Origin: an uncultured bacterium
GTDB lineage: Bacteria; Acidobacteriota; HRBIN11; JAKEFK01
Direction: 5' to 3'
DNA length: 64,000 nucleotides
Assembly: GCA_963777505.1 (NCBI GenBank)
Contig: CAVZQN010000004.1
Span: 1,575,814 to 1,639,813 of the forward strand
Shown here in pieces: positions 2,273-62,216 of the stretch. The position numbers were made by a program, and so were the translations under genes. Each line of letters starts with the position of its first letter. The first letter of the stretch is position 1. A model generated the notes under the pieces. It was not told the origin of the DNA. It saw only the letters and a list, made by a program, of their open reading frames with translations, and did no database searches.

Positions 2273-2321
2273 TCAACTCCACAATTGCGCGGGCGGGTCT
2301 AAAACCGCAAAGTCACAGAGC

Positions 2322-2356
2322 TTGACAGTATTACAGTAATTGTATATATTACTGTC
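2322..2356 (+). promoter_or_regulatory. Sigma70-like promoter (TTGACA-17bp-TATATT) giving a leaderless mRNA for the 2357 gene, with embedded palindromic operator
   Basis: TTGACA at 2322-2327, 17-nt spacer, TATATT at 2345-2350, ATG at 2357 only 6 nt after the -10; inverted repeat ACAGTAAT(2333-2340)/ATTACTGT(2348-2355) overlaps the -10. Confidence 0.5.
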
Positions 2357-2851
2357 ATGATCGAAAAAAGTTTGAATCTGGAAGAATTATCAAAGGAAGT
2401 TGAAGAACTTTTAGATCGACGCGGACTTTTAGACGTTCAACAAGATGGAAGGGTGTCGCCAATTCCTGATGCACGAACGATCCGTTATTACACAACGTTA
2501 GGATTGCTGGAACGTCCAAAAATTGTATTGCGCCAGGCTTCGTATGGGAAACGTCATGTCTTGCAGCTTCTTGCAATCAAATCGCTGCAAGGAATGTCGA
2601 TGCCGTTGGAAGAAATTCAGGCGCGACTTTATGGAAAAAGTGATCGTGAACTGGAAGCAATTCTGGAATCTATTTCAAACAAAAGAAAAGCACCCCGGAG
2701 CGAAATCAATCCGCTCGTTTGGCGTGAAATCATAATCGAGCCCGGACTAAAAATAATGGCTGAAGCAAAATGGCAACCTTCCGATGAAGAAGCTCTTGCA
2801 AAAAGAATTCGCGCAGCAGTTGCTGTATTTGCGAAGGAGGAAAAACAATGA
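2357..2851 (+). CDS. MerR-like helix-turn-helix regulatory protein (164 aa)
   Basis: Segment ARTIRYYTTLGLLERP...GKRHVLQLLAIKSLQGMSMPLEEIQARL resembles the MerR-family HTH/wing signature (TLRYYE-GLL...Y..L.fI.....G.sL.eI); stop overlaps start of next gene (ATGA at 2848-2851). Confidence 0.45.
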   Translation: MIEKSLNLEELSKEVEELLDRRGLLDVQQDGRVSPIPDARTIRYYTTLGLLERPKIVLRQASYGKRHVLQLLAIKSLQGMSMPLEEIQARLYGKSDRELEAILESISNKRKAPRSEINPLVWREIIIEPGLKIMAEAKWQPSDEEALAKRIRAAVAVFAKEEKQ

Positions 2852-5319
2852 CTACCCCCCAAATTCCAATCGTCGATCTGCCGGAAGACGATTGTACCCG
2901 TAGTTTCGGCGTATTAACTGTACAAAAAGCAGCACAGCGCATTGCTCTGCCACTCGAAAAGGTGGAAATTGATGCAAGAGTTGCCGGACAAATCGCGGAA
3001 GTTACAGTTCTGCAGTCTTTTCGAAACGAACATCAAGAAGCACTAGAAGCTGTATACATTTTTCCGCTTTCAGGAGGATCAGCAGTCAGCAGTTTCGAAA
3101 TGAAAGTAGGTTCACGTCTCCTTCGCGGCAAAGTGGAAGAGCGCGCACATGCGCGCCAGCAGTATGAAAATGCCATCCAGGATGGAAAGAGAGCAGCGTT
3201 GCTTGAACAAGAACGTGACGATGTTTTCACGCTTCAAGTTGGAAACATACTTCCTGGTGAACATGTTGAAATCAAGATCACCTATTCTGAACGTCTGCCA
3301 TTTTTTGAAAATGGAACGACTGAAATCCGGCTGCCGATGGTTGTTGCTCCAAGGTATGTTCCTGGAAGTCCGCTTGATTCCAGCGGAGTTGGGGATGGAA
3401 TTGAAGAAGATACCGATATTGTTCCAGATGCTTCCAGAATTTCTCCACCACGGTTGGCGAAAGGTTTTGATCCAAAAGTAGGCCTCAACATTCAGGTTGA
3501 ACTTTTGAGCGATGCAGCGATTCGAGAACTATCCTGCTCGCAACATGCGACCCGTACTTCAAATTCAGGAGGCAACGGAATCACTGTTTCGCTTTCCAGG
3601 ACCGACGAATTACTGAATCGTGATTTTGTGTTGCGATGGAACCTCGGTGAAAACAAAATCCAGACAGTTTTCCAAGGATACAAGTCAGAGCATGGCGATT
3701 ATTATGCGATGTTATCGATCCTTCCTCCGCAACTCGAACATCAATCCATTGCAGGACGTGATGTAGTTTTTATTGTGGATCGATCGGGATCGATGCGCGG
3801 TATAAAAATGGCTTCAGCATCCAAAGCATGTGCGATTTTGCTTTCAACGCTCGGACCCGCGGATCGTTTTGCAATTGCTTGCTTTAACACGGCCGTTAAA
3901 TGGTTTTATCCCAATGGTATGGATGGTCAGCGTTTTCTAACAGCCGATGAATCAGGTTTGAAACGTGGTGAAGCATTCTTGCGTGAAATAACAAGTGAAG
4001 GCGGTACAGAACTCGATCAAGCTCTGGAATCGGGTTTGGAAGTGATTCGCAGACGCAGTGATGACAGTACGCGTGTTCCAGTAGTTGTACTTTTGACCGA
4101 TGGACAAATCTCCGATGAGGCCCGCGTATTATCGCGGATCCAAAAAGAGGTTGGAGGTTCTCGTATTTTTACAGTTGGTATTGATACTGCAGTTAATCAT
4201 GGATTTTTGAGCCGTCTTGCTGCATTAGGAAAAGGAACATCCACATTCGTTGAACCAGGAGCGTCCTTAGATAATGCGCTACGGGCAATTAGCAGAGAAA
4301 TTGGAGCTCCAGTAATTGTAGATGTTAGCCTGAAGGATTTGGATTCAAACATAAATATGGAAACAATTTCACCCGCCCGAATTCCGGATCTATTTGCCGG
4401 ACGCTCCAGCGTCACTTTTTTTCAGATGAAGCAACCGGGGCGCATTCAGATCAATGGAAAATTCAGCGATGGAAGCAATTTCGAACAAACAATTTCTTCA
4501 GAAGTCACTCCGGTATCTGCAATTGCGCATTTGTGGGCTCGCGCACGAGTCAGGGATTTAGAAGATCAGTTCCGGCTCGAAAGTGGTCTGCAAGAGCAGA
4601 CAAAAAAGCAAATTATCGAAATTGCAATTCAGCATACATTACTGACGCGTTTTACAGCATTCGTAGTTGTTGATGAAAGCGAAGTTGTAAATCAGGATGG
4701 AACTCGAAGAAAAATTGTTCAACCAGTAGAAATGCCGGCCCAATGGGAAATGGATATGGGTTCTTCAATGCATATCACTGGAGCCATGGCGATGATGTCT
4801 TGTCCGCCGCCGCCGCAAGAAGCACGTGCTTCAGCACCAGTAGCGATGATGCAATTTGATGAAGGAACCAGACCTTCATCTTTATTGAAAGGGCTCTTCC
4901 GTAAACATCGCCGCGATGTGGATCCAAAACAGAAGCCTGCAGAATCAAAAGCGTTGAAAGATGCGGTCAAAGATTTTATGAATGCATTCGACAGCGTACA
5001 AAAATCCATAGAGTCAGGGCAGGTACCTTCAGGGAAACAACTTGAAAAGACACACAAGCAACTAATCAAGCTGATGACGGAGAGTGGTGAATATTCAGCG
5101 ATCAGACGTTTGCTGACTAGTATGGTCACAGAACTATTGACAGCTTTGCGAAGTCCAGGAATTGAAGTGTCAGCTTTGCGGAATATCTTGAATCAGAATA
5201 AGAAAACGATTGATGAAGCCTTTCGCGAAGTAAATGCAACGACAGCCGGCCCATTTCTGGGAATCAACCATTTGATCTCTGCGTCTTTGCGGTTTGTTGG
5301 CGAATTCTGTTACACTTGA
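2848..5319 (+). CDS. VIT-domain plus von Willebrand factor type A (vWA) domain protein, 823 aa, with Met/Pro-rich linker and C-terminal helical domain
   Basis: vWA MIDAS motif D-x-S-x-S in VVFIVDRSGSMRG, downstream LLTDGQISD, and TAFVVVDESEV motif typical of VIT-vWA proteins; N-terminal ~250 aa VIT-like; translationally coupled to the upstream HTH gene. Confidence 0.7.
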   Translation: MTTPQIPIVDLPEDDCTRSFGVLTVQKAAQRIALPLEKVEIDARVAGQIAEVTVLQSFRNEHQEALEAVYIFPLSGGSAVSSFEMKVGSRLLRGKVEERAHARQQYENAIQDGKRAALLEQERDDVFTLQVGNILPGEHVEIKITYSERLPFFENGTTEIRLPMVVAPRYVPGSPLDSSGVGDGIEEDTDIVPDASRISPPRLAKGFDPKVGLNIQVELLSDAAIRELSCSQHATRTSNSGGNGITVSLSRTDELLNRDFVLRWNLGENKIQTVFQGYKSEHGDYYAMLSILPPQLEHQSIAGRDVVFIVDRSGSMRGIKMASASKACAILLSTLGPADRFAIACFNTAVKWFYPNGMDGQRFLTADESGLKRGEAFLREITSEGGTELDQALESGLEVIRRRSDDSTRVPVVVLLTDGQISDEARVLSRIQKEVGGSRIFTVGIDTAVNHGFLSRLAALGKGTSTFVEPGASLDNALRAISREIGAPVIVDVSLKDLDSNINMETISPARIPDLFAGRSSVTFFQMKQPGRIQINGKFSDGSNFEQTISSEVTPVSAIAHLWARARVRDLEDQFRLESGLQEQTKKQIIEIAIQHTLLTRFTAFVVVDESEVVNQDGTRRKIVQPVEMPAQWEMDMGSSMHITGAMAMMSCPPPPQEARASAPVAMMQFDEGTRPSSLLKGLFRKHRRDVDPKQKPAESKALKDAVKDFMNAFDSVQKSIESGQVPSGKQLEKTHKQLIKLMTESGEYSAIRRLLTSMVTELLTALRSPGIEVSALRNILNQNKKTIDEAFREVNATTAGPFLGINHLISASLRFVGEFCYT

Positions 5320-8300: not shown

Positions 8301-8420
8301 CTCTGGCTCGAAGATATTGTTCTTCGCGCGTTACGAAAAGATCCCGCCAAACGTTTCGAAAACCTCGATGAAATGCTCGCCGACCTCAAATTCGGCATCG
8401 ACTTCAAGCAAAACTCATAA
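5379..8420 (+). CDS. Multidomain signalling protein: N-terminal array of TPR-like ~19-residue helical repeats, a degenerate (pseudo)kinase domain, and a canonical Ser/Thr protein kinase domain (1013 aa)
   Basis: C-terminal domain has LGEGGMGNVY, VALKML, HRDLKPQNIL, DFGISR, SPKYTSPE. The preceding domain has VMIRIL (K to R), HGNLTPENIY (HRD to HGN) and TNFG (DFG to NFG). N-terminal 350 aa are periodic Y-x-x-A-A-x-x-Y-E-K-type repeats. Confidence 0.8.
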   Translation: MPDYLKEARKAEKEKIFSRAGEFYRLAGEIDSAVEMYMKAEDYILAAGLMEQKGNWSAAANLYERGRQYRDAAKIYEKIKDYRSAFSMYEKINDYPRASEMAEKAEDYFKAAVMAEEAKTLQRAAQLYIQANQYPQAARIHYKLLQQLVDLTEKRFFPDYEAQLAKHANTTAMLYERINDHAKAAYCYQLARNHKKAAESYLADQKPEKAAEIYHQLKSYNKAFEILSGLTDVSNKPLFADVCYQLKKFDKAATLFQQCGNLGRAADACEQAKLYNIAAKIYEELGNFKRAAEMCLKANNKIRAAELYEKTGNFGNSAILYQQSGQNEKALESYLAIGRRIPAAKIALQIKDEDRAIFLLQAINPMEEEYRDACALLGVIFAERGMSSAAQRKFEEALERPTLTKTNLDIYFDLAMQQEKMGMRAEAADLYERILSVDFSHKEASRRLEELRRSAVYHIPDTFYVPQPSESVENIQTSGQPRIVASRYELVEEMIHDASGKVYKASDQFFQRPVMIRILPKQDQNLTQVILKCTQLSSALNHNNILAIYDGGKDKDDYFVCTEYVDGQTLRQYLSDHSLNIQEVVQIAQQIILALAYVHKKGLIHGNLTPENIYIAADKSVKVTNFGNLAVWEKQNAAVVKQYLSPEQLTDQTSDERSDVYSFGIILYELAYGNPPFSGVDVEQQHLSALPVFEETPLHTVPDFLIRIMKKSLAKDRNRRYANADEIQNEFETPGITPGVVINGRYEIVRELGEGGMGNVYQARDRDLDEIVALKMLKGEIGGDPDMLQRFIREIKVARMIAHPNVVRVFDTGTYEANRYITMEYIDGISFDRWIDQSREIDLKTRLNILLKIIQGVQAAHARGIVHRDLKPQNILIDSDFIPHILDFGISRVRTHKDSSTTAKIVLGSPKYTSPEQISGQEADYRSDIYSLGVLTFYMLTFQEPFSGDDVQSILMKHLTLEPASPRHLNPEIPLWLEDIVLRALRKDPAKRFENLDEMLADLKFGIDFKQNS

Positions 8421-8482
8421 GATTTTAGATTTCAGATCACTGATTTCAGATTGAAATTGAAAAATTGAAGATTGCTAGAGCG
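8421..8482. repeat. Terminal inverted repeat R1 of IVS-like cassette (GATTTCAGATT-rich, ~55 bp)
   Basis: gattttagatttcagatcactgatttcagattgaaattgaaaaattgaagattg; its reverse complement matches R2 (8876-8935) at about 85% identity. Confidence 0.75.
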
Positions 8483-8487
8483 TTTTT

Positions 8488-8841
8488 TTATTTCGATAGC
8501 TTCGATGTTTTTATGGAAGATACGAATATGGAAACAAGTTCATTTCCCTCAACAATTAATGATCTTAATAAAGACTCATTAAGGATTTTGCATTCGATAA
8601 TAATCTCCATCCAATAAAGAGATTCATCCGCTTCTTCCAAAACAATTCCCAGTTTTGAGATAAAATCCACTTTTGAACGTGCTCGACAAGCTGCACGATA
8701 ATTTGCTCCCACGGACGTTCCGGACCGAAAAAGCTGATCACCCACGCGTCGTGCTTCATATGAATTCGGCAGAGCTCTGCATAGTCTTAGGATGCGCTTC
8801 CCGTATTCTTTTGTTCGTCTCTTCATCTCTTGTTGATTCAT
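8488..8841 (-). CDS. Four-helix-bundle protein (TIGR02436; 23S rRNA intervening-sequence protein family)
   Basis: SGTSVGANYRAACRARSKVDFISKLGIVLEEADESLYWMEII matches the family signature; start moved to internal ATG (8839-8841) because the track ORF 5' end runs into repeat R2; flanked by inverted repeats R1/R2. Confidence 0.75.
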   Translation of the reverse strand: MNQQEMKRRTKEYGKRILRLCRALPNSYEARRVGDQLFRSGTSVGANYRAACRARSKVDFISKLGIVLEEADESLYWMEIIIECKILNESLLRSLIVEGNELVSIFVSSIKTSKLSK

Positions 8842-8875
8842 ATACCAACCTTCTCTCAATCTTTCAATCCTCAAT

Positions 8876-8935
8876 TTCAATCTGAAATCTAGAATCTGAA
8901 ATCTTAAATAATTGAACCGCAAAGTCACGGAGTTC
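8876..8935. repeat. Terminal inverted repeat R2 of IVS-like cassette
   Basis: caatctttcaatcctcaatttcaatctgaaatctagaatctgaaatcttaaataa is the reverse complement of R1. Confidence 0.75.
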
Positions 8936-8952
8936 TTTGCGTCTTTGCGGTT
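8915..8952. repeat. Hairpin formed by two inverted copies of the recurrent motif (AACCGCAAAG ... CTTTGCGGTT, 10-bp stem)
   Basis: aaccgcaaagtcacggagttctttgcgtctttgcggtt read directly; overlaps the 3' end of the DUF2851 CDS. Confidence 0.6.
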
Positions 8953-10388: not shown

Positions 10389-10469
10389 CGTTTGCCTCCT
10401 GTTTTGGCAAACGGTGGAGGATGGTAGGAAGTTACCCGCACTAGGATTTTACCACAAAGACACGGCCTA

Positions 10470-10660
10470 CGGCCGCAATTTCAGATTTCAGATCTTAGAT
10501 TTCAGATTGAAATTGATGATTTTTGGATTTAAGTACAGGTTAATTCTACTTTATGTGAGCAGACCGAATTAAGGCTTAAAAAGAATCTAATAGCTTCTAT
10601 CAATCTTCAATCAAAAATTTCAATCTGAAATCTAAGATCTGAAATCTAAAATCTATTGGA
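10470..10660. mobile_element. MITE-like empty element: inverted repeats R3 (10470-10530) and R4 (10598-10660) of the same GATTTCAGATT family flanking a 76-bp non-coding core
   Basis: 33-bp core caatttcaatctgaaatctaagatctgaaatct is identical between rc(R3) and R4; no ORF between them; sits in the DUF2851 / radical-SAM intergenic region. Confidence 0.6.
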
Positions 10661-12023: not shown

Positions 12024-13414
12024 TTTTGAATTGTTGCTACGTTTGGCAGGAGATCCTGGCGATCGATGAGTTGACTTGCCGAAATAAGCTCATAACCGCG
12101 TTGACGAAAAGTCTGGATAATTTCGGGAAGCCATTTATCGACACGATCTTCCGGTTGACGTTGAGTTCCCAGGTGCATCAGTACAATAGCTCCATTTGTT
12201 TGAGCCGCTTCATTGTGCCCAAAACTTAAAATACGGTCTTTGATTAACATTGCAGGAAAATAATTTGCATAACTTGAATTTGGCACCCAATCCAGGCTGT
12301 CCATATTTTGGCGAGTCTTTGGATCGGATGTCCATGCAACGTGAACGAACCCGAGCTCGGCAGCCCAACGCCGAATTTCGAGATTATGCTCTCCGTAAGG
12401 CGCGCGCCACAAAGGCACCATTCGTTTGCCAGTCGTAAGATAGAACAATTCATCCGTTTTACGCAACTGCATCTGAAGATCTTCGCGCGTGAGCATAGGA
12501 GAAGTTTTCTGCTGTGAATCCGTTGCAAATGTTGTGAGATGGTCATGGCTGAAAGTATGATTGCCAACTTCATGCTCTGAAGCGATACGCCGCGACATTT
12601 CAGGAAATTTTTGAATGAACTCCCCGGTGAGGAAAATCGTGGAACGCACATTATGTTTTTTCAGTGCATTAAGAATCGATTCCGCTGAATTTGCCTCTGA
12701 GCCTCCGTCAAACGTGAGAACAATCTCTTTCCGATTGATGTTTCCGCGCGAAATATTGTCCGGTGAATTTTGGAAAAACTTCCAATTTGCGCTGTCAGAC
12801 TTTATTGAATCCTGATACAGAACCATAATGGCTGGAGAAAAATTTGAAGATCCATCATCATCATAGAATCGGGTCTGCAGTACATTTGCATGTTTCGTTA
12901 GCATGACTTTTGGGAAGCGATACAGCGTGTTGCGTGCTACCGTGCTTTCTACAAGTGATCCGTTCAGGTAAACGGCAACTACAGCATTTGCCGGAGCCGA
13001 GCCTTCTACCTCGACGAACTGAGAAGCGCTCTTCATCCCATTGATTGGCCGCGTAATATTAATCCCATCAGCCTTATCGTCAGCTTTTTCCAGGTCAATA
13101 GGCAGTGACGGTGTCATGAGATCAGGTTGTTGATGCTGACTTCCACCGGAATAAAAAGCGTCTGCAAGCAGGCCGAAATAAACAAAACCTGCCGCTAAAA
13201 CTACCAGCGAAGCATATATTGCATATCGACCATAATTGCGGGTGGGTGTAGCCGTCGCATTCTTTTGCAAATATGTTTTATGACAGAGGTCTCCGCAAAA
13301 TAAATGATGATCCAGGCTAATCTGGCATTGCGGACAAAGCGCGCGACCACATTCAAAGCACTTACGGCGCGCAATACGTGACGGATGTTTAAAACAAAAC
13401 CTAGGCTCGTTCAT
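12020..13414 (-). CDS. Polysaccharide deacetylase (CE4/NodB-homology) with N-terminal zinc-ribbon and one TM segment (464 aa)
   Basis: N-terminal CFECGRALCPQCQ...CGDLCH Cys pairs and a TM helix (YAIYASLVVLAAGFVYFGLL). NodB motifs LTFDGGSE, HTFSHDH and LWRAPYG. Confidence 0.7.
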   Translation of the reverse strand: MNEPRFCFKHPSRIARRKCFECGRALCPQCQISLDHHLFCGDLCHKTYLQKNATATPTRNYGRYAIYASLVVLAAGFVYFGLLADAFYSGGSQHQQPDLMTPSLPIDLEKADDKADGINITRPINGMKSASQFVEVEGSAPANAVVAVYLNGSLVESTVARNTLYRFPKVMLTKHANVLQTRFYDDDGSSNFSPAIMVLYQDSIKSDSANWKFFQNSPDNISRGNINRKEIVLTFDGGSEANSAESILNALKKHNVRSTIFLTGEFIQKFPEMSRRIASEHEVGNHTFSHDHLTTFATDSQQKTSPMLTREDLQMQLRKTDELFYLTTGKRMVPLWRAPYGEHNLEIRRWAAELGFVHVAWTSDPKTRQNMDSLDWVPNSSYANYFPAMLIKDRILSFGHNEAAQTNGAIVLMHLGTQRQPEDRVDKWLPEIIQTFRQRGYELISASQLIDRQDLLPNVATIQK

Positions 13415-14244: not shown

Positions 14245-14271
14245 AATCTCTGCGTCTTTGCGGTTTAATAA

Positions 14272-16863: not shown

Positions 16864-16932
16864 ATTGGCGAAAAGATTAACATATCTGGAGCTTTGTGTC
16901 TCTGCGGTAAATAAAGCCTTATATTGTTCAGA

Positions 16933-19126: not shown

Positions 19127-19148
19127 TGTTTTTTTTTACCGCAAAGAC

Positions 19149-20162
19149 TCAGATGACAAGTTCTGAAACGGGGAAGAGAGCAGGGGAGTTTTCTAGAACT
19201 TTAGTTACTGCCGATTCAACCGGCCCATTCATCAATATTCCTGATGCATGTTGATGTCCGCCACCGCCGAAACGTGCTGCAAATTTATTTACATCAACAT
19301 CACCTTTGGAACGCAAACTCACTTTGACTCGTCCATCAGGAAGTTCAAGAAACAGAAGTGACGCAAGAACATTTTTGATTCCACGTGCAATGTCAACGAA
19401 TCCTTCAATCTCTTCCGGTTCTACGCCCGTTTTTGTCAGCATGTCTTGAGTAACGACAGCCCAGGCAAGGCGTCCTGTGTGCATATATTCGAGATTGCAC
19501 AACACCATTCCAAGGAGTTTTACACGCGCCGGCGAACATCGCTCATAAATTTGTTCGTAGATGTGAGCGGGATTGATCCCAGTTTGAAGTAACTGAGAGG
19601 CGGCAACATGAGTCCGGTGATTGGTGTTGGGAAACCGGAATGCTCCAGTATCCGTCAAGATCGAAGCATACAACGGCTCAGCTATATCCGTCGTGAGTGG
19701 AGAATTCATTTCTGTAATCAGTTCAAGAACAAGTTCTCCTGAAGCACATGCGTCCTGGCAAATCCAGTTAATATCTGCAAAATCGCCGCAAAGCGGATGA
19801 TGATCGATGCAAATCTTGAGTGCCGGATGATTTTGAATAACAGAATGCATCGGACCTAATCTTTCCCACTTACTGATATCCAGAATGAAAATCACTTGAG
19901 CTTTATCGATGATGGAAGTGTCATGAGGTTCGTACAAGAAAATTTCGGATGGTCTCTCCAGAAATTGATATTTCCGCGGAGTCCATGTGGAGTTAACGAT
20001 ACAGGCTTCTTTGCCAAGCCTTTTCAAGAAGCGCAGAAGACCGAGTTCGGATCCGATACCATCACCATCTGGATTTACGTGTGTGGTGATGATGAAGCGT
20101 TGATTTGCGTTAATGGCTTCTTTCGTTTTTGTAAAAGCGTCCATGTCTCGGAGGTTAAACAA
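19149..20162 (-). CDS. DHH-family phosphoesterase (NrnA-like nanoRNase/pAp phosphatase)
   Basis: HVNPDGDGIGS and DHH-type motifs; track start is TTG at 20162, an in-frame ATG lies 18 nt downstream. Confidence 0.75.
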   Translation of the reverse strand: MFNLRDMDAFTKTKEAINANQRFIITTHVNPDGDGIGSELGLLRFLKRLGKEACIVNSTWTPRKYQFLERPSEIFLYEPHDTSIIDKAQVIFILDISKWERLGPMHSVIQNHPALKICIDHHPLCGDFADINWICQDACASGELVLELITEMNSPLTTDIAEPLYASILTDTGAFRFPNTNHRTHVAASQLLQTGINPAHIYEQIYERCSPARVKLLGMVLCNLEYMHTGRLAWAVVTQDMLTKTGVEPEEIEGFVDIARGIKNVLASLLFLELPDGRVKVSLRSKGDVDVNKFAARFGGGGHQHASGILMNGPVESAVTKVLENSPALFPVSELVI

Positions 20163-28014: not shown

Positions 28015-28095
28015 AGATCAAAAATGAAAGATCAAAGATCAAAAATAAAGATAGAGCTTCATTTTTGATATTTTATTTTTCATTTTTTATTTTAA
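28015..28095. repeat. AT-rich imperfect palindrome with tandem AAAGATCAAA units; probable bidirectional terminator/hairpin
   Basis: aaagatcaaaaatgaaagatcaaagatcaaaaataaagat ... ttcatttttgatattttatttttcatttttt read directly. Confidence 0.4.
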
Positions 28096-28099
28096 TAAC

Positions 28100-28819: not shown

Positions 28820-28847
28820 AAAAACTTAGCGTCTTTGCGGTAAAAAA

Positions 28848-29873: not shown

Positions 29874-30283
29874 TGAGAAAAGTTTCCAAGCTCGAATTGC
29901 AGGACGTAAAAAAGATCCTTACGGCTTCCGAAGCAGAAGCCATTCGGATCGGCGTTGATATGGACATTGCGGTCGTTGATGATGGCGGGAATCTCCTCGG
30001 ATTTCTCCGAATGGATCGTGCCAAGGTAACAAGCATTCAAATTTCAATTGATAAAGCTTTTACCGCAGCCGGAACACGAAAGCCTACAAAAGATTACAAA
30101 GCCGTAGGCGCTGTTGATGGAATGGCATTTGGGATCAACACCAGCCATCAAGGACGTTTTACAATTTTCGGCGGTGGCGTTCCAATTATGATTGAAGGCG
30201 AATGTGTCGGCGCCGTGGGCTGTAGTTCAGGGACTCCTGAGCAAGATGAACAGGTTGCTCAAGCAGGAATCAATGCACTCTGA
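29873..30283 (+). CDS. GlcG/HbpS-like heme-binding protein (DUF336)
   Basis: 136 aa; DIAVVDDGGNLLGFLRMD and GGGVPI motifs typical of DUF336. Confidence 0.7.
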   Translation: MRKVSKLELQDVKKILTASEAEAIRIGVDMDIAVVDDGGNLLGFLRMDRAKVTSIQISIDKAFTAAGTRKPTKDYKAVGAVDGMAFGINTSHQGRFTIFGGGVPIMIEGECVGAVGCSSGTPEQDEQVAQAGINAL

Positions 30284-30300
30284 ATCTTTGCGGTAAAAAA

Positions 30301-32617
30301 ATGAAAATAAAAAAAGTGGCAATTCTAGGTGCTGGAACAATGGGCTCACAAATTGCGGCTCATTTTGCAAATGCTTCGATTCCATCAATGTTGTTTGATA
30401 TGCCTGGGCTTTCAAAAGCCGGCATTGAAAAGCTGAAGAAATTAGAACCTGCACCGCTCTTTGATCCTTCCTTATCTTCATTAATAGAACCTCTTGAATT
30501 TGGACCTGACTTTCCGCGATTAATAGAAGCCGATTGGATTATTGAAGCAGTTATTGAAGATTTAGAAGCAAAACGCGCATTGCTGAACTCGGTGCTCCCG
30601 CATCTTCGCGATGATTCAGTCATTACTTCAAATACTTCTGGTTTACCTCTATCAAGTATCGCTCTTGAAATGCCGGCAGAATTTAAGAGTCGCTGGTTCG
30701 GTACACATTTTTTCAATCCACCCCGCTATCTTAAACTTTTAGAGCTGATTCCAACTTCCGATACGAACGAAAATTTATTGCATGAAATTGCAGAATTTGG
30801 CGATAAACATCTTGGCAAAGGCATTGTTTATGCAAAAGATACTCCCAACTTCATTGCGAATCGTCTTGGCACGTTCGCAGCAATGCTCGCTTTGAAAGTC
30901 ATGCTTGAAGATGGATATTCAATTGAAGAAGTGGATGTACTCACAGGTCCGATTGTCGGCCATCCAAAAACTGCAACATTCCGTTTATTCGATCTAGTTG
31001 GAATCGATATTCTTGGAATGGTGGCGCGGAATTTATTTGAAAATGTACCTGATGATGAAAACCGTGAACTTTTCAGAATTCCAATGTTCCTGGAAGACCT
31101 TCTTCAACGCGGATGGTATGGAAATAAAACCGGTCAGGGTTTTTACAAGAAAACGCCTGAAGGTATTTTGACTCTCGATCCCTCAACAATGGAGTATAGT
31201 CCGCAAAAGAAGCCAGTCTTTCCATCTTTGGAGATGGTAAAGAATATTGAAGATCCAAGAGAACGGATTGCAAACTTAGTTCGTTCAAAGGATCGCGCAG
31301 GAAGTTTTATTTGGAAAACATTATCTCCACTCTTTGCTTACGCTGCGAACTTAATTCCGGAAATTTCGGATGACATTCTGAATGTGGACAATTCAATAAA
31401 GTGGGGATTCAACTGGTCGCATGGAATTTTTGAAACGTGGGATGCGATCGGAGTTCGTAAGTCCGTTGAGCGTATGCGTGAAGAAGGAAAGCATATTCCT
31501 GCATGGATGGACTTGATGCTTGCGCAGCCGGATCCAAAGTTTTACAAAAATGAAAAAGGGAAATTGCATTGCTGGGATATTTTTGGATATGAGTATCGTC
31601 CTGTTCCGCAGCCTCAGGGTGTCTTAATTCTGGATCACATCAAACAGCAGAAGGGAACGATCAAGAAAAATGCCGGAGCCAGCTTGATCGATCTTGGAGA
31701 TGGTGTGGCCTGTCTGGAATTTCATTCAAAAATGAATGCAATCGGCGGGGATACAATCCAGATGGTGAAGTCGGCAATTGAAATTGTCGAAAAAGATTTT
31801 GAAGGCTTAGTTATAGGAAACCAGGGTGAAAATTTTTCAGCAGGAGCAAATTTAATGCTCTTGCTTTTGGAAGCGCAGGAAGAAAACTGGGACGATCTAA
31901 ATATGATAATCAAAGCATTTCAACAAATGGTGATGTCCTTGCGCTATTCAGCGCGTCCAGTTGTTGCTGCGCCATTCGGTCTTGCACTTGGAGGTGGATG
32001 CGAAGTTAGCATGGGAGCCGATGCAATCCATTCCGCAGCGGAAGTTTACACCGGACTTGTTGAAGTAGGTGTTGGATTAATTCCTGCAGGAACGGGAACG
32101 AAAGAAATATACGTAAGAAATTTTAAGAAATGTTTGCCCGGTGCTGATCCATTACCGTTTTTGCGAAATGCTTTCGAAACCAGTTGCACTTGCGAAAGCA
32201 TCACGTTCAGTACTCGATGCAAAAAGACTTGGATACTATGCCGAATCAGATACTTTTAGCATGAATGCGGATCGCGTCATTCAAGATGCGAAGAATGTTG
32301 TTTTACGACTTGCGAAAAATTATAGACAACCTCAACCACGAACCGACATTCTTCTGACTGGTCGCGCAGGATACGCTTACCTTCAAGCTGGCATTTACTT
32401 AATGCGTGAAGCTGGTTTCATCAGTGAATATGATCAAAAACTCGGTCAAAAAGTTGCGTGGATCATGACCGGTGGAGACTTGACCGAGCCCACCCGCGTA
32501 AATGAACAATTTATGCTGGATCTCGAACGCGAAGCCTTCCTTTCGCTGCTGGGTGAACCGAAAACGCAGGACAGAATTCGACATATGCTGAAGACCGGCA
32601 AACCCCTCCGGAATTAA
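30301..32617 (+). pseudogene. fadN: FadN-type bifunctional 3-hydroxyacyl-CoA dehydrogenase / enoyl-CoA hydratase, interrupted by an apparent 1-nt frameshift near a T5 run (~32158-32162)
   Basis: ORFs 30301..32259 (VAILGAGTMGSQIA; crotonase GLVIGNQGENFSAGANL) and 32141..32617 (…EREAFLSLLGEPKTQDRIRHMLKTGKPLRN) are the N- and C-terminal parts of one FadN-like protein in different frames; removing one T restores a continuous ~770 aa protein. Confidence 0.7.
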
Positions 32618-35695: not shown

Positions 35696-35703
35696 TTTCT
35701 TTT

Positions 35704-35765
35704 ATCGGAGCGCGGACATCCTTGTCCGCATTACGGGCCGCAGGCATCTTTGCCTGCAATTAATC
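35704..35765. repeat. REP-like element: GCGGACATCCTTGTCCGC hairpin + ATTACGGGCC + GCAGGCATCTTTGCCTGC hairpin
   Basis: Read directly; the same composite occurs reverse-complemented at 42426-42500 and partially at 57040-57100. Confidence 0.7.
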
Positions 35766-36950
35766 CTATTCATTTCTTTGCGTCTCTGCGGTTATAAAAT
35801 CTCGAATCACTTTATCTATAAATTCCGGTTTATCGTCTAAGGCAAATGTTCCTACATTTTCGACGGGAACAATCTTTACGGATGAAATCTCGACGGCTTT
35901 CCATTGCGTTATCGAATGAGGTTTCTCTTTCGGATCCGTAATTGATGGAATCACAAGAGCTGGAATTTTCAACTCCGTAATTTCAGCCGACAAGTCTGTA
36001 GTCATTAATTCTGCGCCGTAATCCCAGGTCAAATGAGCGTCTGATTTACCGCCGTTTTGAGCTAGCTGCAGATTGCGTTGTGGATCTTTGCTCATTGTTC
36101 CTCCAACGTTCTGCCAGTATTTTGAGAAACATTCGCGCGAAGGCCTCGGAAACAATTCGATGGGCAAAAAAAGTTTTGCCAGGCGATCCCGGAATTCAGG
36201 CGTTAACTTGCCTGAAGGATCATCCTTTGAAATTACCATCGGAGAATAAAGCAAACCATTTAAAACGACCACTGCTCTAATATTTTGCGGGTGGTCAAGC
36301 GCTAAGCGTAACGCAAGATACGCACCTGCTTGATGACCTAAAACGATGGGTGCTTTCAAGTTTTCTTTTTGGATCAGGTTCAGAATTGCATCTTCTGCAT
36401 TTTTCCAAAGCCTTCGTGCTGTGTAATCGCGTTTTTCAAAAGAGGGGAGTGCAGGCGTTCCACCAAAACCAGGAAGTGTTACAGCATACATTTTGTAATT
36501 ACTTTTATTTCTATCAATAAATAATTGGAAAACATTTCCATCCATTCCTACATCGGGAATTAGGATGATCGGGATCTCACCATTGCCCACCTTAATTACC
36601 TGTTCAAGTTCACCAGGCTTTGCTAAAGGAGATGCGATTTCACTTTCCCCAGGACACGTCCAGCTTATTGCGGATGAAACAAGCATATCGATTACCGATG
36701 GCGGTGGATTCGATTTCTGCAAACGGACAGACAACTGGAACAATTCTTTGTAGGCATCCTTGCGCTGATCAACAGTCAAATCCGGAGATTCAGCTTTTGA
36801 TTTTGCTTTCGCAAGCATCGAAATGTCCTCAGCTGAAACATTCTCTTCAATTCCAAGGTAGTGAATCAGGTTTCGTGCGAAGGTCGTGTCATCTGCATGA
36901 GCTTGTAAAAATACAAGTAAACAAAAAGGAAGAAATAGCATTGCTTTCAT
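35766..36950 (-). CDS. Secreted alpha/beta-hydrolase-fold protein
   Basis: Signal peptide MKAMLFLPFCLLVFLQAHA; nucleophile-elbow-like VVLGHQAGAYLAL (G-H-x-x-G). Confidence 0.55.
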   Translation of the reverse strand: MKAMLFLPFCLLVFLQAHADDTTFARNLIHYLGIEENVSAEDISMLAKAKSKAESPDLTVDQRKDAYKELFQLSVRLQKSNPPPSVIDMLVSSAISWTCPGESEIASPLAKPGELEQVIKVGNGEIPIILIPDVGMDGNVFQLFIDRNKSNYKMYAVTLPGFGGTPALPSFEKRDYTARRLWKNAEDAILNLIQKENLKAPIVLGHQAGAYLALRLALDHPQNIRAVVVLNGLLYSPMVISKDDPSGKLTPEFRDRLAKLFLPIELFPRPSRECFSKYWQNVGGTMSKDPQRNLQLAQNGGKSDAHLTWDYGAELMTTDLSAEITELKIPALVIPSITDPKEKPHSITQWKAVEISSVKIVPVENVGTFALDDKPEFIDKVIRDFITAETQRNE

Positions 36951-37078
36951 TTTGTTTGGTCTCCTTTGTTGTGGCTAATGTAAGTTGGAGGGCAACAAGG
37001 AGTCTCTACTTATGTGGTGGACGGACGCTTTCTAATTGCGAATGGTCTTCAAACTCAACCGCAGAGACGCTAAGTAAG

Positions 37079-37870
37079 TTAAAACTCAGAATGGAGAACT
37101 TTTCGTAATTCGTTTCGGTAACTTCGACCGAGTGGTAGGATGGTCCCATTTCGAAGCACAACGCGATAGTCACGTTTGAACCATTGCTGCAGTTCTTTAA
37201 TCGACTCTACGTTTACAATTGCTCCGCGATGAATCCGCACAAATGAAATCGGATCCAGCTCCTTTTCGAGTAATCCAATCTTTTGCCGTATCAAATATGT
37301 CTCTTTTCCTGAATGGATCCGTACGTAATTATCTTCTGCTTCAATCCAATCAACTTCGCGGGCTTTTATAAAAAATATTCGTCCTCTTTCTTTAACCGTA
37401 AACCGATCCAGATACATGCCTTTCCCGGACAGTGATTCAAGCATCGAATAAGTTCTCTGGATCCACTCTTTTTGGTTTCTTGTACGAAGTTCATTTTTCG
37501 CATGAATGACAGCTTCTTCAAATCGCTTTTTCTTGAATGGTTTCAAAAGGTAATCGAAAGCATGAAGCTCAAACGCTTTGATTGCGAATTCATCATAAGC
37601 GGTGACGAAAATAACGAGGGGCATCGACCCTTCATTGATTTTCTTCAGGACTCCAAAGCCATTCATGTCGGGCATCTGAATATCCAAAAAGAGAATATCG
37701 GGTTTTGAACCCGTTAATGCTGCCACAGCTTCAGTGCCGGTTGCGCATTCTGAGACCACTTGTAGTTCGGAATCTTTTTGGACGAGTTCACGGATACGAG
37801 TTCGCGCTAGCTCTTCATCATCAACGATCATGATCGTGATTTTGTTTTGCTCGATCATGTTTTTACCCAT
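37079..37870 (-). CDS. LytTR-family two-component response regulator
   Basis: CheY-like receiver (IMIVDDE...DILFLDIQMPDMNGF) and C-terminal LytTR DNA-binding domain. Confidence 0.85.
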   Translation of the reverse strand: MGKNMIEQNKITIMIVDDEELARTRIRELVQKDSELQVVSECATGTEAVAALTGSKPDILFLDIQMPDMNGFGVLKKINEGSMPLVIFVTAYDEFAIKAFELHAFDYLLKPFKKKRFEEAVIHAKNELRTRNQKEWIQRTYSMLESLSGKGMYLDRFTVKERGRIFFIKAREVDWIEAEDNYVRIHSGKETYLIRQKIGLLEKELDPISFVRIHRGAIVNVESIKELQQWFKRDYRVVLRNGTILPLGRSYRNELRKVLHSEF

Positions 37871-38975
37871 GGGTTCGGATGGGGATTTTCATTTCAACAC
37901 TGACCCCGCCTTCAGACCGATTTGATAATCGAAATTCATACTCGTCAGTGTAGAGACGTTTTAATCTTTCCTGCACATTGCTAAGTCCGATTCCATTGAT
38001 AGGCTTATCGGAAAGTTCAGGGCCATCGTTGACCACCTGAAGGAAAAGATGATGATCATTCTTTCGTGAGGAAACTTCAATCCGGCCAGAATGAATATGT
38101 GCGATTCCATGTCGTATCGCATTTTCGATGATCGGCTGCAAAATTAGATTCGGAACTTTGAGCGGAAGAGTCTCCGGGTCAATTTGCATTTCTACTTTCA
38201 AACGATTTCTGAAGCGGATTCTTTCAATCTCCAAATAACTTGATAAAAAACGAAGTTCTTCTTCTAGAGTGACTTCCAGTCCTGAACTACTTTGAAGGGT
38301 TAACCGTAAGAAATTTCCGAGTTCACCGATCATTTCATCTGCATCTTCTGGATTTTTGTGGATTAAAGCTGAAATGGAATTCAGAGTATTAAAAAGAAAA
38401 TGAGGATGAAGCTGCATTTTTAATGCATCAAGCTTTGCCTGTGCTAGCTGAGTCTTCAACTCGGAAGCCCTGCGTGAATAATCGAGTGCGTGATATCCCG
38501 CGAGAATGATCCAGTAAATCAAAATGCCGATATGGAAGTCGATCGCAAAGATCATTTTGAAAATCCGTTCAGGATCGTACTGCGCTCTTTGTATAGCTTC
38601 AGGAAATTTGACAAACAATGCGTCTGTGATTGAAGCACTCGTGGCGAACGCTTCCGTGAAACGAATGACGAACCAATAAATGATGGAAAAGATCGCAAGA
38701 TGTAAAAGAGAAATGAGAATACTTGCGATGCCATTCGTTATGAAGAATCGTTTTCGGGAGCCTGAGAATTGAGGTGAGCGCTGGATTGTTCGGATAACAA
38801 GCGGAAACAAAAAAATCCACAAACACCAACGAGTCAACTCCCAGCTGATGATGTTGGACCAGCTCATTGTAAATCCGCTGTTTAGTGCAAGGAGGCGGAG
38901 TTGCCATGAAAAAATAAATCCGATTCCAACCCAGGCTAAAACAAACAGCAGGATCTTGATCCAGCGTTTCTGCAT
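37863..38975 (-). CDS. LytS/YehU-type sensor histidine kinase
   Basis: Multi-TM N-terminus, LHPHFLFNTLNSI (His_kinase internal region) and HATPase motifs; 8-nt overlap with the regulator gene. Confidence 0.85.
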   Translation of the reverse strand: MQKRWIKILLFVLAWVGIGFIFSWQLRLLALNSGFTMSWSNIISWELTRWCLWIFLFPLVIRTIQRSPQFSGSRKRFFITNGIASILISLLHLAIFSIIYWFVIRFTEAFATSASITDALFVKFPEAIQRAQYDPERIFKMIFAIDFHIGILIYWIILAGYHALDYSRRASELKTQLAQAKLDALKMQLHPHFLFNTLNSISALIHKNPEDADEMIGELGNFLRLTLQSSSGLEVTLEEELRFLSSYLEIERIRFRNRLKVEMQIDPETLPLKVPNLILQPIIENAIRHGIAHIHSGRIEVSSRKNDHHLFLQVVNDGPELSDKPINGIGLSNVQERLKRLYTDEYEFRLSNRSEGGVSVEMKIPIRTHG

Positions 38976-39106
38976 ACTTCATATTTTACCGACTTGTCGG
39001 TCAATAGCATGATTTGGTGGCGAACGGTCCGATTTCACTGGCGACCTTTCTCTTTGAGTCTTTGCGGTTCGAGCGTATTCGAGTATTCTTACAAGGGAGT
39101 AATACA

Positions 39107-41152: not shown

Positions 41153-41183
41153 GAAACTTTTGCGCCTCTGCGGTTAAATAAAC

Positions 41184-42413: not shown

Positions 42414-42425
42414 GCGCTACGGTCC

Positions 42426-42500
42426 AATCTGTTGTTTTCTTGCAGGCAAGATGCCTGCCGCCCGTAATGCGGACAAGATGTCCGCGCTCCGAAGCAGAGG
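42426..42500. repeat. REP-like element (reverse-complement copy of the 35704 element) in the lolC-lolD spacer
   Basis: gcaggcaagatgcctgc cgcccgtaat gcggacaagatgtccgc read directly. Confidence 0.7.
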
Positions 42501-42509: not shown

Positions 42510-43220
42510 ATGAGTGATGGAACCGCAAAGGCGCAAAGTGAGATTCTTTTATTAGAAGCGCGAAGCTTATCAAAGAGTTACCAATCGCCTGTTCGCAGGA
42601 TTGATGTGCTGAATGAATTAGATCTTCAAATTCCGCATGGAAAGACAATTGCAATTATGGGCGCGTCCGGAGTAGGGAAAAGCACTTTGCTCCATGTACT
42701 GGGTATGCTGGATCGTCCGGATAGCGGTCAAATCTTGTTTGAAGGACGCGATTTAGCCTCTTCAACAACACAAGAACTTGCAGACTTCCGCAACAAAAAA
42801 ATTGGATTTGTTTTTCAGATGCACCATTTACTTCCGGAGTTCAATGCGCTTGAAAATGTCATGATGCCAATCCTGCTAAGGAATTATGATCGCAAGGTGG
42901 CTGGAGAGCGCGCGATGAAAATCTTACATGAAGTGGGTCTTTCAGAACGTGCCGATCATCGCCCGGGACAACTTTCAGGAGGCGAACAGCAGCGTGCCGC
43001 AATCGCAAGGGCTCTTGTTAACGATCCACCTTTAGATTCTTGCTGATGAACCTACTGGAAATCTTGACGAGCGTACAGGTGAAACAATCTTCCAACTATT
43101 CCGCGATCTTCATTCTCATCGCAAACTATCTTTCATAATTGCCACTCACAATCCTGCCCTTGCGGCTATCTGCGACGAAACGTACGTTCTCCATGAAGGA
43201 AAACTTACACCGAAAATTTA
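42510..43220 (+). pseudogene. lolD: Lipoprotein-releasing ABC ATPase LolD, interrupted by an apparent 1-nt insertion (~43035)
   Basis: Walker A GASGVGKST and signature LSGGEQQR. The ORF stops at NDPPLDSC*, and the next frame reads ILADEPTGNLDE...ATHNPALAAICDETYVLHEGKL*. Deleting the g in cctttaGattctt restores LILADEPTG. Confidence 0.7.
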
Positions 43221-43290
43221 ACAAACTTTGCGTCTTTGCTATTGAGTTATCCTCTGAAAACGTTGAAAAATTGTAGTAATTCTTGTAAAA

Positions 43291-50145: not shown

Positions 50146-50166
50146 TTCAACCGCAGAGACGCAAAG

Positions 50167-52254: not shown

Positions 52255-52353
52255 AATGTTTCTATTGTACCAAGGATCTTCTTTACCGCCGAGAACGCCG
52301 AGTAGCTTAAATTTTTTTGCCTCCCGGATTCAATGCGAGTATAGTAATACGTT

Positions 52354-60030: not shown

Positions 60031-60882
60031 ATGATGAGAAACCGTCTCTTTCATGATGCGCGCGACTTTCAAATTCTTTTTTTATTTACCTTCCTGACAC
60101 TAGGAATATTTGAGCGGGATTGGACTCTTCGACCCATACTGATGGCGACGATTATAGTGTCCTCAGTCACCGTTCAATGGATTTGCGATCGTTTTTTCTC
60201 TTCTCCCAAGCCCTCGATTCGCAGCGCCTTGATCACGGCGATTAGCTTGTGCGCACTTCTTCGAGCCGGCTCAATTCTAACAATGATCATTGCCGGAGCA
60301 GCGTCCATCTTGAGTAAATTTCTTTTTCGTTACCGCGGAAAACATTTCTTTAACCCATCTAATTTTGGAATCATTCTTGTTTTGTTGCTCACGTCTGATG
60401 CCTGGGTATCGCCAGGGCAATGGGGGAACGAGGTTTGGCTTGTGCTTTTGTTTTTCGCAACCGGTGGCATGGTGGTTAGCAAAGTCGGACGTTGGGACAC
60501 GACAGGTGCATTTTTAGGCGGTTATATATTGCTTGAGTTTGCCCGCAATCAATGGCTCGGATGGACACCCGATGTTTTTGTTCACAAAATGATGAGCGGC
60601 TCGCTGCTTCTGTTTTCATTTTTCATGATCACAGATCCGCGTGCGATTCCTGATCGAAGAATTGCAAGAATACTCTGGTCTCTTTGTGTTGCAGTCCTTA
60701 CGTATGTTCTCCGGAATCATTATTTCCTTCCGACAGCTCCGTTTTGGGCATTATTTGTGCTGTCACCATTTACGATCGTTTTCGATCGGATATTTCCAGC
60801 CAAGCGATTTGAATGGAGTGCCAAAGAAAGCTCTGTTGTAAATCCATTAATCGCAAAGACACAAAGGGAGGTCTTGGTATGA
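60031..60882 (+). CDS. Polytopic integral membrane protein of unknown function
   Basis: ~8 hydrophobic segments; FFNPSNFGI and MITDP motifs; stop overlaps the start (ATGATG) of the next gene. Confidence 0.45.
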   Translation: MMRNRLFHDARDFQILFLFTFLTLGIFERDWTLRPILMATIIVSSVTVQWICDRFFSSPKPSIRSALITAISLCALLRAGSILTMIIAGAASILSKFLFRYRGKHFFNPSNFGIILVLLLTSDAWVSPGQWGNEVWLVLLFFATGGMVVSKVGRWDTTGAFLGGYILLEFARNQWLGWTPDVFVHKMMSGSLLLFSFFMITDPRAIPDRRIARILWSLCVAVLTYVLRNHYFLPTAPFWALFVLSPFTIVFDRIFPAKRFEWSAKESSVVNPLIAKTQREVLV

Positions 60883-62190
60883 TGCGGATTTTATTAGCTT
60901 TTGTATTTTCATTGCCTTTCATTTCATCTGCCTATGGATTTTGCGGATTTTTTGTGGCCAAGGCAGACACGAAATTATTCAACAAGGCTTCAAAGGTTGT
61001 GCTTGTTCGGGATGAAAATCGCACAGTCATTACAATGGCGAACGACTTTCAAGGAGAAGTAAAAGATTTTGCAATTGTAGTTCCGGTTCCAGTCGTTTTG
61101 AAAAAGGAACAAGTTCATATCGGTGATCCAAAAATCATTGAAAGGCTTGATGCATTCAGCGCACCGCGATTGGTCGAATACTTCGATCGTGATCCATGCC
61201 AGCCTGTTTATCCTGAAAGTGTCGGTGCGGCAATGCCGCGGAAATCGGCAGTAGCTGACCGCAAGAAGAGATTCAACAGGCGTAACGATTGAGGAGCAGT
61301 TTACTGTTGGCGAATACGACATCATGATTTTGAGTGCGACTGAATCTTCAGGACTTCAGACATGGCTGGAACAAAATGGATATAAAATTCCGAAAACCGC
61401 AACTGAATTGCTTCAGCCTTATATCCGCAGTAACACAAAGTTTTTTGTAGCGAAAGTGAATCTTGCCGAATATGACAAACGAGGTCTAACGTATCTTCGT
61501 CCAATTCAAATGGCTTTTGAATCACCTAAATTTATGCTGCCGATCCGTTTGGGAATGGCAAATGCAGATGGCGTACAGGACCTGATTGTATTTGCATTAT
61601 CTCGAGTGGGAAGAATTGAGGTTACCAATTACCGAACTGTAAATATTCCATCAGAATTCAATATTCCGATTTACGTTAAGAATGAATTCGCCGATTTCTA
61701 TAAAGCGATGTTTCAAAGAGCCTACGAAAAGGAAGGGAAGAATGCTGTGTTTGTTGAGTATGCATGGGACATGGCCTGGTGTGATCCATGTGCAGATGAT
61801 CCATTGAATCCTGAAGAGCTTCGAAAAGCGGGTGTTTTCTGGTTAGATCAGCAAAATCAAAACAATGTTTTTATTACTCGAATTCATGCGCGTTATACAC
61901 GTCCGCTATTTCCTGAGGATTTCGTATTTCAGGCAACTCCTAATCGTCAGAATTATCAAGGACGTTATATTTTGCAGCATCCATTCAAAGGGAAAATTGC
62001 GTGTGACCAGGGCCGTCAGTATTTAAGAGAAGTGGCTAAACGGCAGGAGAAAGAAGCACAACAACTGGCAAGTTATACAGGGTGGGACATTAATGAAATT
62101 CGTAAGAAAATGGGACTTCAACAAGCTGTGAATAAACCCGAAGATGAGTCATGGTGGGATAAAATCTTTTCGGATGAAAAGGATGACTAA
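60879..62190 (+). pseudogene. Secreted DUF2330-like protein, paralog copy 1, split by an apparent frameshift near 61255-61262
   Basis: ORFs 60879..61292 and 61324..62190 align with the N- and C-terminal halves of the downstream paralog (62217..63530). An alternate frame across 61255-61320 reads TARRDSTGVTIEEQFTVGEYDIMILS, matching RAREDALGIKIEAQFTVGEYDIIILS in copy 2. Confidence 0.65.
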
Positions 62191-62216
62191 CCGCAAAGAC
62201 ACAGAGGGAGGTTGAT

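Follow-up and report, generated by a model that had tools for sequence, protein, structure and literature searches.

An acidobacterial intergenic 18-mer as one arm of a small inverted-repeat element family in many bacterial phyla

The window analysed here is a 64,000-nucleotide stretch of DNA from an uncultured bacterium of the phylum Acidobacteriota (GenBank contig CAVZQN010000004.1, positions 1,575,814 to 1,639,813), and its spacers hold many copies of a short motif with the consensus AACCGCARAGACGCARAG. An earlier note, made from the letters of the window, had described this motif as a 17-mer and had compared it to a DNA uptake signal. The string has 18 bases, and the conclusion that it forms one arm, or terminal repeat, of small inverted-repeat elements whose family occurs in many bacterial phyla is well supported by the results described below. 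An arm consists of a T(R)AACC start followed by two to five tandem units of 8-9 nt that share the core C-R-C-R-R-A-G and lie 1-2 nt apart; the units come in flavours that include CGCAAAG, CGCAGAG, CACAGAG, CACGAAG and CACGGAG. Paired arms bound a short loop, giving a hairpin, or 100-250 nt of unrelated sequence, giving a form that resembles a miniature inverted-repeat transposable element (MITE), or a gene of about 125 codons for a protein of the GxxExxY family. This plan matches that of the intervening sequences (IVSs) of 23S rRNA. We consider it likely, with a probability of roughly 0.7, that the explanation holds as a whole, namely that the 18-mer is the arm of a selfish, IVS-like inverted-repeat family that crosses phyla.

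The motif in the window

A search with AACCGCAAAGACGCAGAG that allowed up to three mismatches gave 17 matches in the window against 0.06 expected, and none of 100 shuffles came near this number. A weight matrix built from these 17 sites returned 21 copies at a score of at least 14, where 0.23 are expected, so that the over-representation reported earlier is real; two further, divergent copies lie at 10450 and 52284. The positions listed previously were recovered to within a few bases, except for 15862, which holds a single unit only. The earlier count of about 18 copies had missed an exact copy at 5277-5294 on the - strand, the copies at 42521, 32640 and 63532, and the two divergent ones. In the window the motif has an AACC or TACC start and then two 8-nt units in tandem, first (C)CGCARAG and next (A)CGCARAG, whose core is C-R-C-R-R-A-G. 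Sequence conservation ends at the 18 nt, and the flanks vary among the copies.

The placement of the copies is far from random with respect to gene bodies. A distance of at least 40 nt from the ends of open reading frames (ORFs) was used to define positions outside gene bodies, for which about 15% of the window qualifies. By mechanical ORF calls, 20 of the 21 copies lie outside gene bodies (chance P about 1e-15), and the sole exception, at 39052, is upstream of the true gene start according to the annotation of a close relative, L121. The statement that all copies are intergenic is thus largely correct, but not to the letter: four copies (5277, 8935, 35776 and 60849) extend over the final 10-25 nt of an ORF, and the one at 42521 is in frame within an ABC ATPase gene. 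Every copy stands between protein genes or at their ends, and the window contains no rRNA. The copies occur in convergent, divergent and co-directional spacers, and the reported placement directly 5′ of start codons (28825, 30278, 60849 and 62189) and between convergent genes (six copies) was borne out. Both orientations are present, as had been claimed, with no orientation relative to the neighbouring genes, and the functions of these genes are unrelated.

The two inverted pairs that had been noticed, at 8915-8952 and 32629-32657, were confirmed as hairpins. They are the only ones in the window: the remaining 17 of the 21 copies are solo arms, which lack a partner and have no significant fold. 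No match was obtained when the window was scanned with Rfam at gathering thresholds. Several other possibilities were tried and rejected. An orientation-biased signal of the KOPS (FtsK orienting polar sequence) or Chi type does not fit 10 copies on the + strand and 11 on the - strand of a stretch with uniform positive GC skew; inspection by eye gave no convincing complementarity of the motif to rRNA; and GGA sites of the CsrA type are absent from the window version of the motif. In annotation, the AACCGCARAGACGCARAG repeat of this window is to be treated as a repeat to mask, and not as a regulatory or uptake signal.

Spread across phyla and the link to GxxExxY genes

The exact 18-mer was searched for in 596 Gb of sequence comprising one genome per species. 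Among the matches listed, it occurred in more than 120 genome stretches, against about 35 estimated by chance, and its hosts belong to at least a dozen phyla with genomic GC contents of 31-71%. According to the record titles, these include Chloroflexota, Cyanobacteria, Bacteroidota, Planctomycetota, Verrucomicrobiota, Acidobacteriota and Gemmatimonadota, with further hosts in Myxococcota, Desulfobacterota, Nitrospinota, Armatimonadota, Cloacimonadota, Sumerlaeia and Proteobacteria. Such a range rules out a species-specific uptake signal. Viral contigs gave only five exact matches, three of them genuine-looking, and so there is no sign of phages as the main carriers.

Outside the window the motif is extended by a third unit, and often by others, for example AACCGCAAAG-ACGCAAAG-GACGCAAAG, and the 8-kb flanks of the cross-phylum matches held 75 additional near-copies. 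An inverted partner was present 12-230 nt downstream of 54 of 110 exact copies and upstream of only 6, which indicates that the normal form is a terminal inverted repeat pair. In this form the two arms, with their AACC ends pointing outward, surround a short A-rich loop or 100-250 nt of unrelated DNA, and hairpins of another flavour are sometimes nested inside the pair. A-rich sequence lies 5′ of the AACC end across phyla, and the flanks often extend the palindrome, as in TTAACC...GGTTAA. Full-text literature searches with the motif, its reverse complement and variants returned nothing relevant, only primers. We found no paper describing CRCRRAG arms or their link to GxxExxY genes, subscription journals and database notes being outside the coverage of the search.

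When the genes beside the motif at 120 cross-phylum loci were compared all against all by BLAST, the only recurrent family was PF13366 (PDDEXK_3), at five loci, and a Pfam scan of 57 small ORFs neighbouring cross-phylum copies gave nothing further; most copies therefore stand alone. At two of these loci (L030 and L053) the PDDEXK_3 gene lies between the two arms, and at two others (L090 and L101) whole hairpins flank it. The association was then examined from the side of the protein, using 80 metagenomic loci fetched by protein similarity alone, which provided 70 GxxExxY genes with both flanks and 187 control positions in the same loci. At least two tandem C-R-C-N-N-R-G units in the expected orientation were found in a flank of 62 of the 70 genes (89%). 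Unit arrays stood on both sides of 48 genes (69%) but of only one control position (0.5%), and a bracketing inverted repeat scoring at least 12 surrounded 46 genes, again against one of the 187 controls. The orientation is fixed: the purine arm lies upstream on the coding strand in 54 genes, where it ends 3-10 nt before the ATG, and the pyrimidine arm lies downstream in 56. The flavours of these arrays (CGCAAAG, 24; CACAAAG, 9; CACGAAG, 7; CGCAGAG, 7; CACGGAG, 6; CACAGAG, 6) differ from one another mainly by purine transitions.

The GxxExxY product (TIGR04256, about 125 codons) is a minimal PD-(D/E)XK nuclease that has a Cas4-like fold and retains the D...ExK residues; a sequence search of the PDB with it found no relative, and the cargo of the elements showed no match to a transposase family. 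The array-flanked pattern also occurs in the cultured species Runella slithyformis and Flavobacterium psychrophilum. In the F. psychrophilum locus (L212; 5605-7335, 11568-12313 and 14869-15480) there are, in addition, arrays in which up to 18 hairpin units of about 97 nt (TTTAACCACAAAGTTCACAAAG...) follow one another in tandem; these arrays sit between genes of the Bat operon and adjoin a GxxExxY gene.

Relatives, a proposed mechanism and rival explanations

Four relatives cover positions 19-45 kb of the window: L121, which is 99% identical, and L122, L124 and L125, whose orthologous 3-hydroxyacyl-CoA dehydrogenase is about 70-84% identical. The spacers after the 3-hydroxyacyl-CoA dehydrogenase, tRNA synthetase and ABC ATPase genes, which hold a mini-hairpin or a solo arm in the window, are occupied in L124 and L125 by full hairpins of three units, in the flavours CGCAGAG, CACAGAG, CACGAAG and CGCGGAG. 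L122 has CACGGAG and ACGTAAA hairpins and, in the spacer after the dehydrogenase gene, (GCGGAAT)x9 together with a PF05635 gene. Since the same spacers are filled with other flavours in the relatives, occupancy of the sites is old, and the sequence turns over while remaining uniform within each element. Other copies have the appearance of insertions. The spacer at 28825 measures 28 nt in the window but 4 nt in L124 and L125, so that this arm looks like an insertion of about 24 nt, and at 42521 the MSEILL of L124 becomes MSDGTAKAQSEILL through the in-frame 24-nt TGGAACCGCAAAGGCGCAAAGTGA. Possible 5-nt repeats accompany these two solo insertions (AAAAA at 28825, AGTGA at 42521).

All three indels that distinguish the window from L121 are at motif sites. 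One is a 3.3-kb block (35701-39039) whose three - strand genes encode an alpha/beta hydrolase, a LytTR response regulator and a LytS-type histidine kinase; it is absent from L121, L124 and L125 and has motif copies at both borders. Another is an 80-nt double-hairpin repeat, and in the third a methyltransferase gene (980 nt in L121) is swapped with the motif.

These observations suggest a model whereby the elements would be selfish passengers that move horizontally and within genomes, with the GxxExxY nuclease as the candidate mover. A transcribed full element would be predicted to fold into a long stem and, by analogy with the IVSs of rRNA, to be cut by RNase III; because of this cleavage it could sit inside operons at little cost. 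In this lineage, two-unit solo arms would be the usual form, some of them probably inserted as pieces of about 24 nt and others perhaps remnants left when an unstable palindrome lost one arm. The solo arms would have no orientation-dependent role here; they would provide stop codons and short protein tails by accident, and may mark places where DNA has been gained or lost.

Several findings weigh against this explanation. Although hairpins are the norm elsewhere, 17 of the 21 window copies are solo, and these arms are very alike (consensus AACCGCARAGACGCARAG), a likeness more in keeping with recent spread or selection than with slow decay. Full elements showed no consistent target-site duplication. 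No GxxExxY gene was found in the window or in the covered stretches of L121-L125, and flavour was not clearly linked to nuclease sequence (53.8% vs 52.4% identity, p = 0.05), which argues against each nuclease recognising its own repeat, as the transposases (RAYTs) associated with repetitive extragenic palindromic (REP) sequences do. Over the 25 kb in common with L121, no lone arm was present in one sequence and absent from the other, and elements persist at the same sites in relatives whose ortholog is only about 70% identical; movement is therefore not frequent. The coincidence of three indels with motif sites reaches only about p = 0.02, a quarter of the spacers holding the motif.

Among the rival explanations, the DNA uptake signal now seems exceedingly improbable. 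Here the motif would mark self DNA for a competence machine, in the manner of an uptake signal sequence (USS) or DNA uptake sequence (DUS), and a density of about one copy per 3 kb in both orientations with some inverted pairs would suit such a role. Known uptake sequences, such as those of Haemophilus and Neisseria, are however confined to one family and common inside genes. The motif is absent deep in gene bodies, its identical sequence spans at least a dozen phyla of 31-71% GC, and the repeats of its family bracket a specific gene. The check for competence genes proposed earlier found none among about 30 window proteins scanned, and the likeness of the GCGGT core to the USS of Pasteurellaceae is coincidental. 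It is also unlikely that the tandem purine-rich units act in 5′ leaders as the site of a host regulator or translation factor that binds RNA or DNA. Binding of a protein of this kind has been proposed for the TAACTGA heptamer repeats of Beggiatoaceae (PMC4679880); in the window, four copies do lie directly 5′ of start codons and one (2303) directly 5′ of a -35 box, and in GxxExxY cassettes elsewhere the purine arm could serve as, or mask, a ribosome-binding site. But the motif occurs in both orientations relative to the gene that follows, six copies lie between convergent genes and some in 3′ coding ends, and the adjoining genes have no function in common. A global regulator site, which the earlier note had offered as an alternative, is unlikely precisely because orientation and position relative to genes are random. 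Moreover, the presence of other flavours at the same sites in relatives means that the sites do not appear tuned to one sequence-specific factor.

We regard it as very unlikely that the copies are transcription terminators or mRNA-stabilising hairpins selected at operon boundaries, given that 17 of the 21 in the window are unable to form a hairpin. The hairpins are not followed by the T-run that completes the GC-rich hairpin of an intrinsic terminator, a scan for terminators and promoters gave none at these sites and no overall excess, and several of the hairpins lie inside apparent operons; what speaks for this function is that full hairpins occupy the same spacers in several relatives and that A-rich sequence precedes the AACC end across phyla. 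The indels invite a comparison with integron attC sites, between which genes would enter and leave as cassettes. All three differences from the 99% relative are at motif sites, including the three-gene block with the motif at both borders and the methyltransferase gene exchanged for the motif, and small genes are bracketed by arms. Nevertheless, this reading is improbable: there is no integrase among the scanned proteins, the termini T(R)AACC...GGTT(Y)A with their unit arrays lack attC cores (RYYYAAC ... GTTRRRY), the genes beside the sites are housekeeping genes whose synteny holds in all relatives, and the indel borders are not precise motif-to-motif joins.

The selfish, IVS-like element family thus remains our favoured explanation. 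An extension of it is put forward more tentatively, as a possibility rather than an expectation: GxxExxY cassettes, empty hairpins and solo arms may together represent an undescribed class of mobile element, found across most environmental bacterial phyla. It would be moved by a minimal Cas4-like PD-(D/E)XK nuclease for which arrays of 8-9-nt units serve as substrate; it would also be able to deposit arm pieces of about 24 nt, even in frame within genes, and would turn its sites into hot spots of gene gain and loss.

Known systems and features of the window

The elements resemble the 23S rRNA IVSs of Leptospira, Coxiella and Xanthomonas in having a small ORF in an inverted-repeat stem with tandem heptamers beside it, and in being scattered over distant bacteria, the IVSs being regarded as selfish (PMC4990558). 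The IVS of Coxiella is described as a selfish element within 23S rRNA that carries an S23p ORF from the same family as the four-helix-bundle ORF of the window; its inverted-repeat stem is cut by RNase III, and two to three tandem heptamers, their number varying among strains, precede the ORF (PMC4990558). In the window, a PF05635 ORF (8488-8832) is similarly enclosed by inverted repeats of heptamer units and lies beside a motif hairpin. However, IVSs occupy rRNA helices 9, 25 or 45, whereas the elements described here lie between protein genes; the CRCRRAG family carries GxxExxY and not S23p, the PF05635 genes of the window and of L122 being associated with other flavours; and most copies here are empty hairpins or single arms.

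A REP family had also been suggested, and in part this holds. Like REP sequences, their hairpin-forming doublets (REPINs) and the RAYTs, the motif is a short, abundant, dispersed and selfish-looking intergenic repeat of many flavours, often arranged as inverted doublets (54/110 here), with a presumed mover gene that is itself flanked by repeats. The unit here is, in contrast, a non-palindromic tandem direct repeat whose solo copies have no fold; the flanked gene encodes a PD-(D/E)XK nuclease (PF13366/TIGR04256) and not a Y1 (IS200-like) transposase; and one flavour is common to many phyla without tracking the protein. MITEs likewise have terminal inverted repeats around 50-270 bp of non-coding DNA and a longer, gene-carrying relative with the same ends, but the present elements showed no consistent target-site duplication at full copies, carry a 125-aa nuclease and not a known transposase, end in short-unit arrays, and occur as single arms in independent insertions of about 24 nt. 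Heptamer direct repeats common to Beggiatoaceae, Cyanobacteria and Bacteroidetes have no known mechanism of spread (PMC4679880). The cyanobacterial short tandemly repeated repetitive (STRR) and TAACTGA sequences (PMC4679880) share with our motif the tandem, heptamer-based form, the intergenic location and the occurrence in distant lineages; they differ in unit sequence, and the elements here have 1-2-nt unit spacing, a fixed AACC end and inverted arms around cargo.

Few unexplained small genes of Bacteroidota, Cyanobacteria, Chloroflexota and their neighbours are as common as those for GxxExxY and four-helix-bundle (S23p) proteins, which often number dozens per genome. GxxExxY genes can now be given fixed ends, namely an AACC terminus and arrays of C-R-C-R-R-A-G units, and the same ends, scattered through unrelated genomes as empty hairpins and single arms, define a concrete element with boundaries and a candidate enzyme. 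The two cultured species named above provide hosts for tests. Such an element accounts for a class of anomalies in metagenome-assembled genomes, namely small spurious ORFs, unusual protein tails and short insertions that keep the reading frame, and offers an explanation for how intervening sequences ended up in rRNA.

The individual copies and the associated cassette are listed in Table 1.

Table 1. Arms of the repeat, and the four-helix-bundle cassette, in window coordinates
Feature	Position	Strand	Context
Solo arm AACCGCAAAGTCACAGAG	2303-2320	+	Directly 5′ of the -35 box of a MerR-family gene promoter
Exact solo arm	5277-5294	-	Within the last 14 codons of a VIT/VWA gene (2848-5319)
Cassette around four-helix-bundle gene	8420-8905		Inverted repeats of about 50 nt made of ATCTGAAATC-type units (8420-8480 and 8840-8905)
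Four-helix-bundle gene, 23S-rRNA-IVS type	8488-8832	-	PF05635, TIGR02436; homologue of PDB 2rld; start ATG at 8832
Inverted arm pair	8915-8952	8915-8932 +, 8935-8952 -	2-nt loop between arms whose AACC ends point outward
Divergent arm TACCACAAAGACACGG	10450-10466	+	Next to it an empty, MITE-like ATCTGAAATC element (10470-10650)
Exact solo arm	14248-14265	-	Occupies most of the 27-nt gap between convergent genes
Solo arm TACCGCAGAGACACAAAG	16892-16909	-	Divergent-gene spacer
Solo arm	19137-19154	+	Convergent-gene spacer; contains the stop codon of a - strand DHH gene
Solo arm	28825-28842	-	In a 28-nt spacer, AAAAA on either side
Solo arm	30278-30295	-	Truncates the tail of an HbpS-like gene and provides its TGA stop codon
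Small hairpin AACCGCAAAGACTCAGAATCTCTGTGGTT	32629-32657		After the 3-hydroxyacyl-CoA dehydrogenase gene; second arm at 32640
Solo arm	35776-35793	-	Left end of the 3.3-kb insertion (35701-39039)
Solo arm	37057-37074	+	Inside the 35701-39039 insertion, between hydrolase and response-regulator genes
Solo arm	39052-39069	-	Just right of the 35701-39039 insertion; kept in L121 at 15436
Solo arm	41158-41175	-	Between tRNA synthetase and MacB-like genes
Arm within the 24-nt in-frame insertion TGGAACCGCAAAGGCGCAAAGTGA	42521-42538	+	After codon 3 of the ABC ATPase gene
Degenerate solo arm	43226-43243	-	The 99% relative has a 980-nt methyltransferase gene here instead
Solo arm	50149-50166	+	Takes up a 21-nt spacer bounded by the stop codons of two convergent genes
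Divergent arm TACCGCCGAGAACGCCGAG, CGCCGAG flavour	52284-52302	+	
Solo arm	60849-60866	+	Overlaps the upstream ORF end; followed by GGAGG and ATG
Solo arm	62189-62206	+	First bases lie in the TAA that ends the upstream gene; then come GGAGG and the start (ATG) of a DUF2330 gene
Divergent solo arm CACCGCGGAGTCGCAGAG	63532-63549	-	Convergent-gene spacer

The inverted pair at 8915-8952, which is the best motif hairpin of the window, overlaps the final codons of a DUF2851 gene and is 10 nt from the cassette of the four-helix-bundle gene. The empty copy of the ATCTGAAATC-unit inverted repeat is 1.6 kb from this gene-carrying cassette, and both copies adjoin a CRCRRAG arm. The ATCTGAAATC-unit cassette is a second flavour with the same architecture as the CRCRRAG elements. 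In L122, nine perfect tandem GCGGAAT heptamers (12317-12392) stand immediately 5′ of a PF05635 gene (12393-12764).

Near the left end of the window, an 11-bp GC-rich stem with a 20-nt loop (2258-2299) is followed by the motif and then by a near-consensus TTGACA-17-TATATT promoter (whole region 2258-2356). The promoter overlaps an inverted repeat immediately before the MerR-family gene, and the region looks like a MerR-type operator. Towards the right end there is a run of DUF2330 paralogues (60031-63530), two of which are preceded by an arm, GGAGG, 6-8 nt and ATG; the arm may have been copied along with the gene start.

Three genes in the compared stretches are interrupted or shortened. The 3-hydroxyacyl-CoA dehydrogenase gene (30301-32617) is split by a frameshift into 652 and 158 aa, compared with 771 aa in all homologues, the ABC ATPase ORF (42510-43201) has 178 aa instead of 237 aa, and L121 has a split GCV_T gene of its own. 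These defects are probably assembly indel errors.

Other repeats were also present. A hairpin of GATCAAA-type units lies between TPR and short-chain dehydrogenase genes (28015-28099), and L122 has a hairpin of ACGTAAA/GCGTGAA units at the matching spot. A separate repeat of about 80 nt, composed of the two hairpins GCAGGCAAGATGCCTGC and GCGGACAAGATGTCCGC, occurs at 42414-42493 and 35701-35765. The copy at 42414 looks like a recent insertion: the 99% relative lacks it, and the end of the MacB-like gene, including the stop codon, is directly duplicated around it over 24 nt. Double hairpins similar to this repeat were found in L122.

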